From Phycisphaerales bacterium (lineage in GTDB: Bacteria > Planctomycetota > Phycisphaerae > WQYP01), in assembly GCA_027451365.1 (NCBI GenBank), contig DAIDJN010000080.1, forward strand, positions 1-61,906: a stretch of DNA of 61,906 bases, in the 5' to 3' direction. The translations under genes and the position numbers were made by a program. This document shows positions 51,090-57,815 of this stretch, one piece after another. Position 1 is the first letter of the stretch, and each line of letters opens with the position of its first letter. The notes below the pieces were generated by a model that had not been told where the DNA came from, ran no database searches, and saw only the letters and a list, made by a program, of their open reading frames with translations.

Positions 51090-52064
51090 TTATGGCTTGG
51101 TCAGCGACGGGCGATAAAGCGCCGTATTGAAAGCCTTTTTGAAATCAGTCCAGTTGGAATTTTCCGTAGGCTCGGCCACGGCATCCACCGCCATCTGGGT
51201 TTTGGCATCCAGATTATCTATCAGATTTATCAGCACCGCTTCGGGCGTTTTCGGCTGAATAGCGGCACCGAATTCCGGCTCGCCATGGTGCGAAAGCACG
51301 ATATGCTCCAGCACCATCAGCAGGTCCGCGCGAATCGGTGCGCCACGCTGTTTGCCGATTTGCGCCGCATGCTGATGAATCCAGAGCGTACCGAGCACGA
51401 CATGCCCGACCAGCCGGCCCATGTCCGTGTAGTCAAAACCACAGTGATAGGAAAGTTCAGCCGTCTTGCCGATGTCATGCAGAAAAAGTCCCGCCAGAAC
51501 CAGATCACGGTCTATATCCGGGTAGCGCGGGCAGATCAATAGCGCCAATTCCAGCAGACTTAGCGTATGTTCCAGCAGGCCGCCAAGCCAGGCGTGATGC
51601 ATTTTCTGGGCGGCCGGTGAAAGCGCAAATTTTTTCATCAACTCGGTATCGTCCAGAAACGAGTTGACGACAAGCGCCAGGTCCGGGTCCTTGATCTGCA
51701 AAAGAATTTCCCGCACGCGGGCCTGCATGTCCGGGATGCTTTTCCGTGTCTGTTTGAGCAGTTGTGTCACATCAATCCGTGATGGATCTTCCACCCGATT
51801 AATCGTTTCGGCCACTAGCTGAAAATGTCCCTGATACGTTTCCACGCGCCCGCGGATGGTCACGTACCCCGGTGAAGGAATGCGGTCGTAGGTGTCGCGC
51901 GGGACACTCCACATGCGGCAATGAATCTGGCCGGTGGCGTCCGAAACGTCGGCCTTCAGAAACGGCTTATTGGTGCTGGTGGTGCCAAGCTGCTTACCGG
52001 AAATAATAAACGTCTGATCCAGAGAATCTCCATCGCGGAGCTGGTTAATTGCAATTCTACCCAT
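51090..52064 (-). CDS. yhaM: YhaM/Cbf1-like OB-fold + HD 3'-5' exoribonuclease
   Basis: N-terminal OB fold (DATGQI, RGRVETY), PAA..HHAWLGGLLEHT, LHDIGK, LSHHG, IDNLDAK. Confidence 0.88.
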   Translation of the reverse strand: MGRIAINQLRDGDSLDQTFIISGKQLGTTSTNKPFLKADVSDATGQIHCRMWSVPRDTYDRIPSPGYVTIRGRVETYQGHFQLVAETINRVEDPSRIDVTQLLKQTRKSIPDMQARVREILLQIKDPDLALVVNSFLDDTELMKKFALSPAAQKMHHAWLGGLLEHTLSLLELALLICPRYPDIDRDLVLAGLFLHDIGKTAELSYHCGFDYTDMGRLVGHVVLGTLWIHQHAAQIGKQRGAPIRADLLMVLEHIVLSHHGEPEFGAAIQPKTPEAVLINLIDNLDAKTQMAVDAVAEPTENSNWTDFKKAFNTALYRPSLTKP

Positions 52065-52165
52065 GACTGAAAACACTCCTGTTATGCCCCGGCGAAAATG
52101 CCGCCCAGGCTGATAATCCGCCCGGATGCCGCCACCGGCTGGCACCGGTATAACCGAAAACGGCC

Positions 52166-53812
52166 TTAACGGGCCAGTTCCACTGCCCGGACCTCGCGCA
52201 AAACGGTCACTTTTATTTCGCCCGGGAAGGTCAATTCCGACTGGATTCGATTGGCTATTTCACGGGCGATAAGCCGCGCTGTGGCGTCATCGCACTTTTC
52301 CGGGTCTACAATCACCCGAACTTCGCGGCCCGCCTGAATGGCAAATGCCTGGCGCACGGACGCAAAGCTGGTGCAGATAGCCTCAAGTTCCTGCAGACGT
52401 TTGATGTACCGCTCCAGTGATTCCCGCCGCGCGCCGGGCCGCGCACCACTGATCGCGTCGGCCGCCATGATAATCGCCGTGTAAGGAGTCGTGGCTGGAA
52501 TATCATTATGATGCCCGCCAATCGCATTAAGCACCGCTTCGGGTTCATTGAATTTGCGGCAGAATTCCATGCCCAATGCCGGATGCCCGCCTTCCTGGTC
52601 ATGATCCATCGCCTTGCCGATGTCATGCAGCAGACCCGCGCGGCGGGCAAGTGTGCCATCCAGTTTCAGTTCCTCGGCTATCATCTGGGATATATATGCC
52701 GTTTCCATTGAATGACGCAACACATTCTGGCCATAACTGGTGCGGTAATGCAGCCGGCCCAGCATTTCCACAATTCTGGGGTGCAGGCTGTTGATATTCG
52801 CCTCCAGCACCGCCTTTTTGCCCGCATTGCGGATGGAATTTTCCATTTCCTTGCGCGTGGCATCCACAATTTCCTCTATCCGGGCCGGATGAATGCGGCC
52901 ATCGGCAATAAGTTTTTCCAGCGTCAGCCGCGCCACTTCGCGGCGAATCGGATCAAAGCAATTCACCGTAATAACGCCCGGCGTATCATCAATAATGACA
53001 TCCACGCCTGTGGCCTGTTCAAAGGCGCGGATATTCCGGCCCTCGCGGCCGATGATGCGGCCCTTCATGTCGTCACTGGGAATGGTCACTGATTTTGTTG
53101 TGCCTTCGCTGGTGACATCGGCGGCATATCGCTGCATTGCCTGAAGCATAATGTTGGTCGCTTTTACGCGGGCCTCATCGCGGGCCTGGTCTTCCAGCCG
53201 TTCGACCATCAGGGCCATATCATGGCGAACTTCACCTTCCACGCGCTTCAGCAGCAACTGCCGGGCGTCCTCCATTGATAAATTCGTCAGACGAAGCAGT
53301 ACCTCTTTTTCCTGCGCCAGCGTCTGTTCAAGCTGTTGTTCCTTGGCTTGCAGATTGCGCGTTCGATCAGTAAGCGATTTTTCCAGCGATTCCAGGTTTT
53401 TGTCTTTGGTCGTCAGCGTATCAAGCTTACGGTCCAGCATATCCTCGCGTTTTAACAGGCGCTGTTCCACGTTGCGCATTTCGGCTCGCAGCGTTTCAAT
53501 TTCACGCTCGGCCTGCTCGCGGATTTTCAGCGATTCAGCCCGCGCTGTAAGTTCGGTCGATTTCAAAAGATCTGCGGCTTTTTCGCGGGCGTCAGTCAGC
53601 ACCTTCTGGGATTCGGCGTTATTTTTAGCCAAGGCCGCTCGTCCGCTGGCGCGCGCGGCAACGAGTGCCACAATCAACCCGACCACCAGCCCCCCCGCCG
53701 CTCCTGCTCCCAGCCACAGCGGATCAAACGCAACGGCCACCACGCCCGAGCCGCCCAAAATCCGCCAAGCATGACCAACGCCCGCCATCGCGAGCGTCAA
53801 TTGAAGAGACAT
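52166..53812 (-). CDS. rny: ribonuclease Y
   Basis: N-terminal TM + coiled coil; KH domain MKGRIIGREGRNIR; RTSYGQN; LLHDIGK; SGARPGAR; AIQAGREVRV. Confidence 0.98.
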   Translation of the reverse strand: MSLQLTLAMAGVGHAWRILGGSGVVAVAFDPLWLGAGAAGGLVVGLIVALVAARASGRAALAKNNAESQKVLTDAREKAADLLKSTELTARAESLKIREQAEREIETLRAEMRNVEQRLLKREDMLDRKLDTLTTKDKNLESLEKSLTDRTRNLQAKEQQLEQTLAQEKEVLLRLTNLSMEDARQLLLKRVEGEVRHDMALMVERLEDQARDEARVKATNIMLQAMQRYAADVTSEGTTKSVTIPSDDMKGRIIGREGRNIRAFEQATGVDVIIDDTPGVITVNCFDPIRREVARLTLEKLIADGRIHPARIEEIVDATRKEMENSIRNAGKKAVLEANINSLHPRIVEMLGRLHYRTSYGQNVLRHSMETAYISQMIAEELKLDGTLARRAGLLHDIGKAMDHDQEGGHPALGMEFCRKFNEPEAVLNAIGGHHNDIPATTPYTAIIMAADAISGARPGARRESLERYIKRLQELEAICTSFASVRQAFAIQAGREVRVIVDPEKCDDATARLIAREIANRIQSELTFPGEIKVTVLREVRAVELAR

Positions 53813-53869
53813 AAGACCCCCGGTTTCAGATTTTCCGCCTCGATTTGCACCCCATGTTATTGCCAAACC

Positions 53870-54300
53870 GACCGCTGAAATTCAAAACGATTCATTATCT
53901 TCCACGGCACATTGCCAATGGAAAGTTGACAGGCTACATGAACGCCCCGGATTTCTCCGGAAGGCCAGCAAGCCGCGCCAATGACCGCACGCATCTGTTG
54001 ACGGATGAATGAAGGGCCGACATATGGCCGGTGTGATGGGCAAAATCAGCCGCGAAACCTTCAGGCTCAATTGGCCCGGGACGCGGCGATTCCGCTGGAC
54101 CAGACGCCTGACAGGCCGTCCAGGGAAGACGGTCGCAACCCGCCTGGAATGCCATACCGCCGAGAGCAATGTCCCGTCCGCATGTGCCATTTCCGGTCCG
54201 ACCATTCGCCAATGGCCCTGGAAATAGCGACCTTGTGTGCCCTTTTTTGAATCACTGAATCACCATTCGTCAATCTATATCACTCTGCCATCAGAGCGTG
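53870..54300 (-). other. structured non-coding region (rny 5' leader domain)
   Basis: No credible ORF; nested long-range helices and local hairpins (see findings). Confidence 0.5.
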
Positions 54301-54314
54301 CCCGGACCAAACCC

Positions 54315-54514
54315 GAAACCAGATGGATTCCAGTCCGACATAAAGCGGCGTGCCATAGCGAAGGCGTTTCGCATCAGGGTTCCAAACAGGCGAACCATGA
54401 CCACCCAAGCCAGCTCAAGGCGAGCCTCGCAAGCCGAGTCAACTCAATGAGTTGCAGTCAGATCGCCAAAGACTGCTTTCCAGCGCAAGAGCCGGAAACA
54501 ACCTTTGACTTCTT
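54315..54514 (-). ncRNA. candidate structured RNA, possibly 6S RNA
   Basis: Starts at a strong promoter; ~200 nt; ends can pair (GAAGUCA/UGGUUUC, UUCCGG/CUGGAA, AAAGC/GCUUU); position upstream of rny is typical of ssrS; family not confirmed. Confidence 0.4.
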
Positions 54515-54520
54515 TTTATA

Positions 54521-54549
54521 ATGTTAACAATGGAACGAAAACGGGTCAA
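54521..54549 (-). promoter_or_regulatory. sigma70-type promoter ~700 nt upstream of rny
   Basis: TTGACC-17 nt-TAACAT with TGn extension. Confidence 0.75.
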
Positions 54550-54800
54550 CTTTTCAGTTTAACCAGCCAATCGCGGGCATCCGCCCGCATTTTGTCGCCA
54601 ATCGGTCCGTGCCGACATTCCGCCCGTGGCCCGTCTCCGGTGTTGTATCCAATGCCCGCCGAAAAACCGGCACTTACCTCGCCCCGGCGGATTGCGTATG
54701 CACCGCGCTAGAAAGGATAATAAGCAACAGGAACAATGGGCGGCATAAACAGTTCAGGCGGGACACCTGCCCCCAAGCTGACGCAATGGCAGACGGCACG

Positions 54801-55003
54801 CCTGGGACTGACGACCAGGCGGGCAAGATGCCCGCCCCCCAACGAGGGCCGACACCTGGGGCACGCGACGAAGCGGGCAAAATGCCGGCCCCCCAACGAG
54901 GGCCGACACCTGGGGCACGCGACCAGGCGGGCAGGATGCCGGCACCCCACCTGGGCAGCGCCTGGGGCACGCGACCGGGCGGGCAGGATGCCGGCACCCC
55001 AAC
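54801..55003. repeat. tandem array of four 52-54 bp units, each with a REP-like palindrome
   Basis: cctggg starts at 54801, 54855, 54909 and 54961; core GCGGGCA(A/G)(G/A)ATGCC(C/G)GC followed by a C-run. Confidence 0.9.
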
Positions 55004-55161
55004 GTGAAAACACAATCCATCATCCTGCCTGTCCGCAAGCCGCATACAATCCCGCAGCCCACCGGACAAGTTGAAAGATAGATTCCCCCCCTCAAGTGCT
55101 AATAATAAATTGAGATATTTATATATGCAATAGATACCAACCGGCCGGCCGATCAGATTCG

Positions 55162-56211
55162 TCACATTCCTCGCCGTTGCATGCGTTTGGCCAGATACAT
55201 CGTCAGTGCATGGTCAAACGGCTCTGCCGTGTTTAACAGCACGTGGCTGATGCGCATCGATCCTGCCGCTGCGCGAATCGCCGATAGATGGGCGGATACC
55301 GCATCCAGATATTGGCGGCGAACCAGGATCGGGTCCAGCCGCAGACGATGATCGGCTGATTCAAGATTTCTAAAAAGCGTCCATTTGCGGAATGGAAAAG
55401 ACAGCTCATCCGGTGCCATCACATGCAGAAGTATAACTTCGTGCCGCCGATGCCGGAAATGATGAAATGCCTTGATTAAATCATCCGTTTTTTCAAAAAG
55501 ATCGCTGATCAGAATCACCATGCCGCGATGGCCGAGTTCCTCGGCAATGTTGTGCAGCAGCGGAGCTAAGGCGGATTCGCGTGTGCAGACGGTCGATTCA
55601 AGGGCCTGAACCAGATTGATCAGATGCGACGGTGTGGACCGCGGCGGAATGAAGGTACGCACTTTGTTGTCGACGGTGACCAAACCAACTGAATCCTGCT
55701 GATGCAACACCAGATAACAAAGTGCCGCGGCCACGAACTGGGCATAACGAAACTTGTTCAGCGGGTCATTTGTGCCGCCGTAACGCATGGACGCACTGCA
55801 ATCCAGCACAATATGTGCCCGCAAATTTGTGGTAACTTCGTACTGTTTAATGTAATAGCGATCAGCCTTGGCGTACAGCCGCCAGTCAATGCGTTTAATA
55901 TCGTCGCCGGGAACATACTGTCGATGCTGGGCGAAATCGACGGCGAATCCCAGATGCTGCGAACGGTGCAGCCCCTGCACGTAGCCATCCATCACCTGAT
56001 GCGCCAGCAGGTCCAGTTTGCTGATTTTGGCTAGCGCCGCGGGTGCCAGAAGTTCCAGCGAGACCGGCGCGGCCGCGGCCGCAGGCCGGGAAGCCGGGGG
56101 GGGCTGTTGAGATAATTCAGGCGGCGGCAAAAAATCTCCCGAAAACAGGTGTTGCGTGAAAAATAAGCCCTGGTTTCCCAACGCGGCGGACCATTCGACC
56201 AAATGGGCCAC
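55162..56211 (-). CDS. DUF58 family protein (MoxR-associated, vWA-like)
   Basis: GLHRS..G..DFAQHRQYVPGDDIKRIDWR, LDCSASM, ILISDL. Confidence 0.93.
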   Translation of the reverse strand: MAHLVEWSAALGNQGLFFTQHLFSGDFLPPPELSQQPPPASRPAAAAAPVSLELLAPAALAKISKLDLLAHQVMDGYVQGLHRSQHLGFAVDFAQHRQYVPGDDIKRIDWRLYAKADRYYIKQYEVTTNLRAHIVLDCSASMRYGGTNDPLNKFRYAQFVAAALCYLVLHQQDSVGLVTVDNKVRTFIPPRSTPSHLINLVQALESTVCTRESALAPLLHNIAEELGHRGMVILISDLFEKTDDLIKAFHHFRHRRHEVILLHVMAPDELSFPFRKWTLFRNLESADHRLRLDPILVRRQYLDAVSAHLSAIRAAAGSMRISHVLLNTAEPFDHALTMYLAKRMQRRGM

Positions 56212-56226
56212 CTAGCCAGCCGCCGG

Positions 56227-57492
56227 TCAGGCGGCAGTCGCGTTGCGCAGGACCTCTTTAATAAGGCGGTCAATAATGCTGTCGCTGGTCATGCCATTGG
56301 CTTCCGCGTTAAATGTTGTCAGAATCCGATGTCGCAGAACCGGATGGGCCACCTGCACGATGTCATCCGTGGTGACATGCATGCGGCCGTGCAGAATTGC
56401 CCGGGCCTTGCCGGCAAGAATCAGATAAATGCTGGCGCGCGGCCCGGCACCCCATTGCACCAGATCGGCCAGCCAGGCGGGAGCATCTTTCTCCTTCGGG
56501 CGGGTGGACCTTACAAGGTCCCTTGCAAAAATATACACGTGGTCGGCCACGGGCACGCGGCGGACAATTTGCTGAAGTTCCATAATCATAGGCCCGTCCA
56601 GCAGACGGGAAAGTGCGGCGCGCACCGGCGCGGTGGCCTGCTTCATGATCAGAATTTCCTGTGCCGGATCGGGATATTTCACCAGTGTCATGAACATGAA
56701 CCGGTCCAACTGGGCTTCCGGCAGCGGGTAGGTGCCTTCCTGCTCGATTGGATTTTGCGTGGCCAGAACAAAAAAAGGTTCCGGCAGGGTGTACGTGTTA
56801 TCGCCGGTAGTGACTCGATGTTCCTGCATGGCTTCCAGCAGGGCTGCCTGGGTTTTGGGAGGCGTGCGGTTGATTTCATCCGCCAGCACAATATTGGCAA
56901 AAAGCGGTCCACGCACGAAGCGGAATTGGCGGCGGCCAGTGGCACGGTCTTCTTCCAGCACGTCGGTTCCGGTTATGTCTGATGGCATAAGGTCCGGCGT
57001 GAACTGAACTCGCTTGAATTCCAGTTCGAGCACATCGCTGATGGTTTTAACCAGCAGCGTCTTGGCCAGACCGGGCACACCCACCAGCAGGACGTGCCCC
57101 TGGCAGAACATGGCTGTCAGCACCTGTTCGATGACTTCCTGTTGACCCACTATCACTTTGGCCAGTTGTTCGCAGGTCATGCGGTAGGCCATAGCGAACT
57201 GCTCGACGGCTTCCACATCCGTGGTGCTGACACGCGATACTCCGGATGCGGACGATAAAGCAACTCCGCGCGAGGCCACGGGCATCGGCACAGCGGGATT
57301 TTGTGCGGGTTCATGATTCGGTGAAACAGCCGGGGCGGGCGCGGCTGGCGGGTCATCGGCCAGGGGAATAAGGCCGTCAGGCGAAATTGCAGCCGCCGCT
57401 GGCGCCGTTGCCGGCGCAGGTGCGGGTGCAGATGCGGGAACTGGCGGAATTATTTTGTCGGGGTCGGAAAAGCTCCCGATGAAATTCGACAT
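56227..57492 (-). CDS. MoxR family AAA+ ATPase
   Basis: GVPGLAKT, RVQFTPDLMPSD, LADEINR, ATQNPIEQEGTYPLPEAQLDRF; Pro/Ala-rich N-terminal extension. Confidence 0.96.
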   Translation of the reverse strand: MSNFIGSFSDPDKIIPPVPASAPAPAPATAPAAAAISPDGLIPLADDPPAAPAPAVSPNHEPAQNPAVPMPVASRGVALSSASGVSRVSTTDVEAVEQFAMAYRMTCEQLAKVIVGQQEVIEQVLTAMFCQGHVLLVGVPGLAKTLLVKTISDVLELEFKRVQFTPDLMPSDITGTDVLEEDRATGRRQFRFVRGPLFANIVLADEINRTPPKTQAALLEAMQEHRVTTGDNTYTLPEPFFVLATQNPIEQEGTYPLPEAQLDRFMFMTLVKYPDPAQEILIMKQATAPVRAALSRLLDGPMIMELQQIVRRVPVADHVYIFARDLVRSTRPKEKDAPAWLADLVQWGAGPRASIYLILAGKARAILHGRMHVTTDDIVQVAHPVLRHRILTTFNAEANGMTSDSIIDRLIKEVLRNATAA

Positions 57493-57815
57493 GCGATGAA
57501 CTCCATTTAACTGGCCAGGTCGGGACCGGCCATACAACAGATTTCTGCAAAAAGCGGCAATCCGGGGCGCAACTTTCAGTCAGACTCTGATTAAATACAA
57601 TACCATTGAACCGGATTTATTGCCTGCCGAGGCTGAAAATCTGCATCGGAAAAGCGGAAAACCAGCGCAAACCGAACAATTTTCCGCAAAAATGACCGAC
57701 CAGCCCAAGAATTGGCTGACGACTCGCCGGGGCGGCAAGTCTGGTGGGCTTGAAGCGCAGGCTGGTCGCGTTTAGAGTAAACAATCGGTTTAGGATTTGA
57801 TCGCAAGGCGTTTTC

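Follow-up and report, generated by a model that had tools for sequence, protein, structure and literature searches.

A conserved, covarying 5′ leader ahead of the RNase Y gene in a Phycisphaerales family and its possible role in RNase Y control

The untranslated region ahead of rny

What occupies the roughly 700 nucleotides that precede the gene for RNase Y (rny) in the window, the whole 61,906-nt stretch of Phycisphaerales DNA analysed here, and does it act upon the gene that follows? In many bacteria the lifetimes of mRNAs are set by RNase Y, whose own control is known chiefly from Bacillus subtilis, a species with a short, unstructured leader. To our knowledge, substrate recognition by this enzyme is still poorly understood, and few large structured RNAs of bacteria lie outside Rfam. 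A first-pass annotation had placed a multi-branched RNA domain at 53870–54300, reading it as an undescribed cis-regulatory leader of an rny-yhaM unit or as part of a large non-coding RNA. This interval proved too narrow, the conserved element extending on the minus strand from a promoter at 54549–54521 to the rny start at 53812, with its most conserved part (54444–54260) mostly outside the domain as originally drawn.

The gene itself (52166..53812, minus strand) encodes an RNase Y with RNase_Y_N, KH and HD domains recognised by Pfam, and a Shine-Dalgarno-like GGGGG (53817..53821, minus strand) lies 4 nt ahead of its ATG at 53812, a start matching that of a same-genus genome. The closest named records belong to metagenome-assembled genomes of Planctomycetota/Phycisphaerae. 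On the same strand, 20 nt 3′ of rny, follows an OB-fold and HD gene (51090..52145), which we take from its domain layout to be YhaM-like. Its linkage to rny is confined to the source genus, and the supposed rny-yhaM unit is a local arrangement, since a yhaM-like gene follows within 1.5 kb of rny in only 1/29 of the relatives' loci. Upstream, the sigma-70-type promoter (TTGACC-N17-TAACAT) is the sole promoter-like site in 53750–55200, where 0.9 would be expected by chance, and from it we infer a transcription start near 54514 and a predicted leader of 702 nt. Between this promoter and the MoxR-type AAA ATPase and DUF58/vWA genes at 55162–57537, an ordinary set on the same strand, lie three tandem repeats of ~54 nt (54816–54975) sharing a GCARGATGCC core, with 11 related matches and 52 core words elsewhere in the genome; from their resemblance they are presumably REP-type repeats.

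The gap between rny and the next upstream gene yielded zero Rfam matches at gathering score, four chance-level ones at E ≤ 10, and neither tRNA nor tmRNA. The initial statement that the region has no credible ORF is borne out by the 7 small ORFs in this gap, for which there were 0 Pfam matches, and by the lack of any reading frame common to 35 leaders of the source family. The pairings first proposed are likewise present as placed, joining 53998–54007 to 54264–54273, 54012–54017 to 54239–54244, 54131–54136 to 54227–54232 and 54186–54194 to 54220–54228 with 9/10, 6/6, 6/6 and 9/9 pairs (one G-U), together with the five hairpins at 53900–53923, 53947–53960 (correctly assigned a GAAA loop), 54116–54132, 54200–54217 and 54283–54296. 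Yet in this copy alone such features do not exceed expectation. The minus strand of 53870–54300 folds with a z-score of −1.42 (11/100 shuffles were equally good), and it holds 26 perfect 6-bp helices and 3 nine-of-ten helices, against 20.2 ± 4.4 and 2.3 ± 1.4, respectively, in shuffled sequence.

The same-genus genome, 56% identical over aligned columns, discriminates between these helices. Three of the long-range pairings are kept (9/10 pairs in 53998–54007/54264–54273, 5/6 in 54012–17/54239–44 and 8/9 in 54186–94/54220–28), whereas 54131–36/54227–32, with only 2/6 pairs kept, is unsupported. Four hairpins also stand, at 53900–23 (5/5 outer pairs), 54283–96 (5/5), 54200–17 (6/7) and 53947–60 (4/5), while that at 54116–32 (3/6) does not. 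Judged as sequence, the window's copy alone is no better than chance, and it is the relatives that rescue and enlarge the finding.

Architecture and covariation of the leader

Among 61 genomes, rny was detected in 60. Of 37 genomes of the source family, 35 have usable upstream DNA (one is without an rny match and one has the gene at a contig edge). All 35 family loci present TTGAC-N17-19-TANNNT and then a 479–717-nt leader before rny, the promoter consensus itself lying 480–1000 nt upstream of the gene in 35/35. DNA similarity among relatives is highest at 54455–54190, and the order of elements is constant: a 5′ hairpin, motif A, the stem P2, a linker, two abutting hairpins, motif B, a variable domain, B′, A′, a further hairpin and the ribosome-binding site (RBS). 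Comparison of these sequences identifies the leader as one multi-way junction, in which the outer helix A:A′ (54444–54438 with 53930–53924) closes P2 to P4 and the inner helix B:B′, the latter being the 53998–54007/54264–54273 pairing already proposed.

Read 5′ to 3′ on the minus strand, the leader would begin with hairpin P0 (54465..54509), a predicted fold whose sequence differs between genera, relatives also having 5′ hairpins. Motif A (RGTTGAY, 54438..54444) is the 5′ strand of the outer long-range helix P1 and occurs in 34/35 leaders, the patterns for motifs A and B having been widened by hand to admit variants. There follows stem P2 (54346..54436), closed by CGG/CCG (its closing C-G pair is present in 27/27), interrupted by a 1x1 internal loop and, in long members, holding two optional hairpins. 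Between P2 and P3 lies a U/A-rich single-stranded linker of 5–8 nt (54340..54345), a candidate endonuclease site by its likeness to RNase Y site rules (PMC11321564; 10.1101/2023.03.12.532304). Hairpins P3 and P4 abut one another (54281..54339) and appear in separate folds of 34 members, P4 including the hairpin at 54283–54296. Next comes motif B (ATAGATYGA...TGGTGA, 54260..54278), the 5′ strand of P5, which is the most conserved sequence of the leader and is present in 35/35. In one genus an open frame after motif B is retained, with changes that are largely non-synonymous as judged by eye. The branched domain inside P5 (54008..54259), which holds most of the helices first annotated, is conserved at genus level only and cannot be aligned between genera. 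It is followed by B′ (53998..54007), the 3′ strand of P5 pairing with motif B, by A′ (53924..53930), the 3′ strand of P1, which in about a third of members, the source genome not among them, is also complementary to the RBS, and directly thereafter by hairpin P7 (53900..53923), the one whose outer pairs are kept in the same-genus genome.

Covariation, the outcome on which the leader interpretation was originally made to depend, was found in the relatives' rny upstream regions, with both long-range helices A:A′ and B:B′ covarying. For the local stems P2 to P4, an unfitted MAFFT alignment of 9 sequences is 84.5% paired, with 6/20 pairs doubly changed and 13 doubly changed cells against 4.8 in shuffles; a model-fitted alignment of 27 sequences is 92.1% paired, with 15/20 pairs doubly changed and slid controls at 23–42%. 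In P3 and P4, double changes affect 5/5 and 8/8 pairs, respectively, in an alignment fitted to the model. The B:B′ helix outperforms shuffles at p ≤ 0.05 in 15/35 leaders, and in 15/17 genera a motif B pairs better with its own leader than in foreign combinations. As for A:A′, a near-perfect 6-nt partner is located 40–175 nt before the start in 24/34 leaders (5.3 expected) and in 13/17 genera (2.4 expected), the double changes including G-C to C-G and T-A to C-G, so that one position displays G-C, C-G, T-A and A-T alike. Since the genera are related, and the search windows and motif patterns were chosen after inspection of the sequences, these counts overstate independence.

Of 8 full leaders, 6 fold at z-scores of −4.2 to −8.0; the leader of the window (−1.57) and a second one (−0.87) do not. 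In the window's leader the best B duplex does not surpass its shuffles (z +0.58), the predicted probability of A:A′ is 0.04, and although the cost of forcing a helix singly is modest (0.0 kcal/mol for A:A′, 2.6 for P2, 4.3 for B:B′), forcing the three consensus helices together costs 12.9 kcal/mol. By these folding predictions, the window's copy is among the weakest of its family.

With a promoter ~700 nt upstream, conserved and covarying elements, one copy per genome and no match to any Rfam family, the proposal of an undescribed structured 5′ leader of rny has held up, and we have little doubt that such a leader exists. The RNA family is uncatalogued, being absent from Rfam and from the papers searched; the literature covered, consisting of open-access papers with few of the motif-discovery supplements, held no description of the leader RNA.

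Distribution and comparison with known RNAs

R1, a covariance model trained on 9 short members over the A-to-B core and biased to such members, matches 31/35 family leaders, among them the 9 used in training and the window's own (E 7e-5), and misses 4/35. In whole genomes it finds matches in 22/45 of the family, 21/23 of these matches being the rny leader, one per genome, while two weak matches located elsewhere (E 0.005 and 0.049) are probably due to chance. Against 23 other-family rny loci it returned zero matches, and against 130 other-family genomes of the class 0, the best unfiltered non-family E being 0.35; among 151 genomes of the phylum it recovered its own genome only. Genes upstream of the leader fall into 23 clusters among 33 loci and a yhaM-like gene seldom follows rny, so that the RNA travels with rny rather than with a neighbourhood. 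Three metatranscriptome contig sets, all from the same study, hold no long piece of the source organism and are uninformative on expression; they contain one 40-nt match to motif B, at depth 2.

Beyond the family, the trace of the element is its short core. ATAGATY occurs 180–650 nt before rny in 25/107 non-family loci, where 3.1 would be expected and the reverse strand yields 1, and is concentrated in families f7 (6/7), f15 (4/4), f11 (2/4) and f2 (8/19), with 3 of the 25 sites coinciding with a promoter rather than the element. In these four families it usually comes after one or two predicted hairpins, and a downstream partner, whose sequence differs from one family to another (GATTGA/TCAATC, GATTCA/TGAATC), is present in 16/26 motif-bearing loci (5.5 expected), the motif being absent from 8 of the 34 loci. 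In 51/107 non-family loci rny is preceded by the promoter consensus of the source family. Homology of the leader core across families is likely on this sequence evidence, resting as it does on a short core, and because R1 finds none of the divergent families the class-wide claim is one of motif counts and not of the model. In family f2 (L091, L100, L223–L227, L236–L244) the rny leader is related and well conserved, and comprises a GACGGCC/GGCCGTC stem, the hairpin GGCC-TTCG-GGTC and ATAGAATTCAC. Long rny leaders headed by a promoter, which have shared words of their own and lack the ATAGAT core, were also observed in f5 (L085, L087, L097), f13 (L098, L265–L267), f9 (L088, L090) and f4 (L084, L095, L254–L257).

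The position of the RNA made 6S RNA a natural first guess. In some other phyla 6S RNA lies upstream of rny and, like the leader, it is non-coding and has a strong promoter. Even so, the 6S family (RF00013) has no match at E ≤ 10 in 53700–55200 or in 13 relatives' rny loci, and of the 6S matches seen in 41/61 genomes none falls, by coordinates, inside the rny leader. The shapes differ as well: 6S RNA is a rod of ~190 nt with a central bubble and its 5′ end paired to its 3′ end, whereas the leader is multi-branched, with a separate 5′ hairpin and a multi-way junction, and the source genome has a separate 6S candidate on contig C26. The latter (G000:C26:124484-124687, L001:1501-1704) is a probable 6S RNA, longer than usual and scoring 31.5 bits, below the 46.4 cut-off; sub-threshold 6S matches of 200–230 nt occur across the source family. 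Divergent RNase P, SRP RNA and tmRNA were rejected as identities for the locus, all three being found elsewhere in the genome and none within the window. The genome further shows two distinct RNase P RNA genes above cut-off (G000:C42:42-444 and G000:C44:17043-17498), 73% alike over 211 nt, representing a second copy or binning contamination.

A closer analogy is offered by leaders of nuclease genes. The Rfam rne leader families gave no match, and the locus precedes rny, the RNase E gene being on contig C56; nonetheless, the leader shares with the rne type a long structured UTR of conserved structure tied to a nuclease gene. The E. coli rne 5′ UTR (PMC13692253) is likewise a long structured leader of a decay-initiating endonuclease gene with proposed nuclease feedback, and consists of branched stem-loops whose shape is conserved beyond sequence. 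It differs in gene and nuclease and in length, at 361 nt against 479–717 nt, and the rny leader has in addition a 5′-to-3′ helix clamp whose 3′ strand is able to pair with the RBS. The B. subtilis rny 5′ UTR (PMC10303841) belongs to the same gene and has a single sigma-A-type promoter, and UTR-dependent autoregulation has been demonstrated there; it is, unlike the present leader, 164 nt long, AU-rich, lightly structured and RNase J1-dependent. The leader described here is four times longer and has a conserved multi-way junction, and RNase J (TIGR00649) was not found in the source genome, which is 93% complete.

Possible control of RNase Y synthesis

Several genera repeat motif A in the ribosome-binding region, just after the Shine-Dalgarno (SD) sequence (GAGGTTGAC) or just before it (GTYGA..AGGG), so that A′ is able to pair either with A or with the start region. 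An A-like GTYGR in the last 22 nt before the start is found in 12/35 leaders and 7/17 genera, against 64/1078 (5.9%) of own-genome genes. In 11/34 leaders the A′ window is among the best tenth of all windows for RBS pairing, own combinations beating foreign ones in only 11/17 genera, and removal of motif A in silico raised A′–RBS pairing in 9/22 leaders and lowered it in 0/22. Mean predicted SD accessibility hardly changed upon this removal (0.245 to 0.219), several members are predicted to be OFF even at full length, and in the window A′ does not pair with its RBS (rank 0.93). As accessibility barely moves and the window shows neither state, the switch is supported in only part of the family.

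We consider it probable that the leader regulates rny after transcription. More specifically, and tentatively, we favour a cis-acting 5′ leader that controls RNase Y synthesis post-transcriptionally via nuclease feedback, a reading to which we give slightly less than even confidence. In the intact leader A′ would be held on A, leaving the RBS usable. Abundant RNase Y, or RNase E, which the source genome also encodes, would bind the conserved junction and cut, the U-rich linker before P3 being the most plausible site; the fragment carrying A would then be lost from the 5′ end and A′ would shift onto the RBS, upon which translation would halt and the message decay, providing negative feedback on the nuclease. 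Several steps have precedents: RNase Y cleaves its own 5′ UTR in B. subtilis (PMC10303841), and RNase E is recruited to its own leader by branched stem-loops (PMC13692253). According to PMC11321564, RNase Y prefers AU-rich unpaired RNA that is followed within a few nt by a hairpin, a hairpin that the S. aureus enzyme requires, and the linker–P3 unit resembles such a site. B. subtilis RNase Y sites, described in 10.1101/2023.03.12.532304 as AU-rich and G/A-preferring, with a hairpin that mainly stabilises the product, fit less well, the preferred G/A dinucleotide being rare in the linker and the site rules loose. A covarying leader with defined helices permits exact mutational tests, namely breaking and restoring A:A′ and deleting the linker, and the leader is also a candidate natural high-affinity RNA for RNase Y.

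Translational riboswitches usually have a junction-closing helix whose 3′ strand doubles as an anti-SD, and the leader, with its own junction-closing helix and, in part of the family, an A′ that may alternatively hide the RBS, resembles this layout. The main rival, which we hold to be unlikely, is a riboswitch-like ON switch, in which a metabolite, an ion or a protein other than a nuclease would stabilise P1 and free the RBS of A′ without cleavage. An ON switch needs members that are OFF at full length, as several are predicted to be, and the ATAGAT junction recurs in five families. Against it, the invariant bases are mostly in helices, with few invariant and unpaired; stem lengths vary widely, the A-to-B span alone ranging over 86–160 nt; the RNA occurs only before rny and never before pathway genes; and there is neither an Rfam riboswitch match nor a known aptamer. 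The leader also departs from the class in that P1 loops out ~500 nt and in that no more than about a third of its members show the anti-SD switch.

The other option in the first-pass annotation was a large ncRNA. Such an RNA, independent or processed, would do no more than share a transcript with rny until cleavage sets it free, and might serve for instance as a nuclease scaffold or decoy; we find this improbable. Its appeal is that the RNA is large, has its own promoter and ends clamped by P1, retains a sequence core across families and occupies the slot of 6S RNA in other phyla. Such an RNA should end somewhere, and no intrinsic terminator is predicted within the window's leader, the candidates in 10/35 family leaders being scattered without a shared position. 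Likewise, no copy was found away from rny, and 6S RNA, RNase P, SRP RNA and tmRNA exist elsewhere in the genome. This option is less likely because a shared terminator is missing, the outer helix closes 90–150 nt before the start codon, and the 3′ strand is, in a subset of members, coupled to the RBS, with which the outer helix competes in many.

A leader without regulatory function, be it a passive structure for stability or spacing or a sequence in decay, would agree with a window copy that folds no better than shuffles and with a P5 domain unalignable between genera, but is very unlikely given that compensatory changes keep the long-range helices across 17 genera and that an A-like copy at the RBS is enriched. 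Least credible is transcription attenuation or pausing with P2 and the U-rich linker as a conditional terminator, for although P2 is followed by 4–6 U in a few members and a terminator scan flagged this spot in 3/35 leaders (L021, L026, L029), the linker in many members is GTTAAA or GATTAG, too short in U, a conserved intrinsic terminator is absent from the leaders, and that of the window has none predicted.

The view that the slot upstream of rny is regulatory, to which nuclease feedback would belong, is supported by one sister family, f6, where a different kind of element fills it. Both the RNA core and the promoter consensus are absent there (0/19), and 10/19 loci (L081, L083, L086, L199, L201, L203, L207, L210, L211 and L213) carry an ORF of ~90–110 codons with a hydrophobic, putatively transmembrane (TM) segment and RAPP or RGPP near its end, the stop lying ~90–230 nt before rny. 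The TM+RAPP/RGPP/RASP type of ORF was seen also in L131–L142, and the same type recurs in 11/14 further Phycisphaerae records; it was found in 0/123 other loci and on no reverse strand, and four of the f6-type ORFs gave zero Pfam matches. A leader peptide of this kind was rejected for the source family, a TM+RAPP ORF occurring in 0/35 leaders, which share no frame. ORFs of the RAPP and RGPP type are known to encode arrest peptides controlling the gene that follows (PMC12992588), and the f6 ORF is a candidate arrest peptide controlling the membrane-anchored RNase Y. The text of that paper makes no mention of rny, nor is there a match in 10 of its supplementary files; in the literature searched, no description of RAPP ORFs before rny was found.

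It is conceivable, if rather doubtful, that Phycisphaerae control RNase Y by interchangeable leader devices: an ancient hairpin-hairpin-AUAGAU RNA in most families, which in the source family would have become integrity-sensing, a 500-nt clamp holding the anti-SD strand until cut, and a membrane-insertion-sensing RAPP arrest peptide in one sister family. If true, this would constitute a new class of nuclease-sensing translational switch and, within the searches made, the first case of an arrest peptide tied to RNase Y supply. That one and the same slot is filled by an RNA switch in one family and by an arrest-peptide ORF in its sister suggests strong selection on the dosage of RNase Y in cells that possess RNase E as well.

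Two minor observations concern the records themselves. The rny leaders of L110 and L007 are near-identical although they come from two different records, and one record set contains two rny loci in a single assembly.
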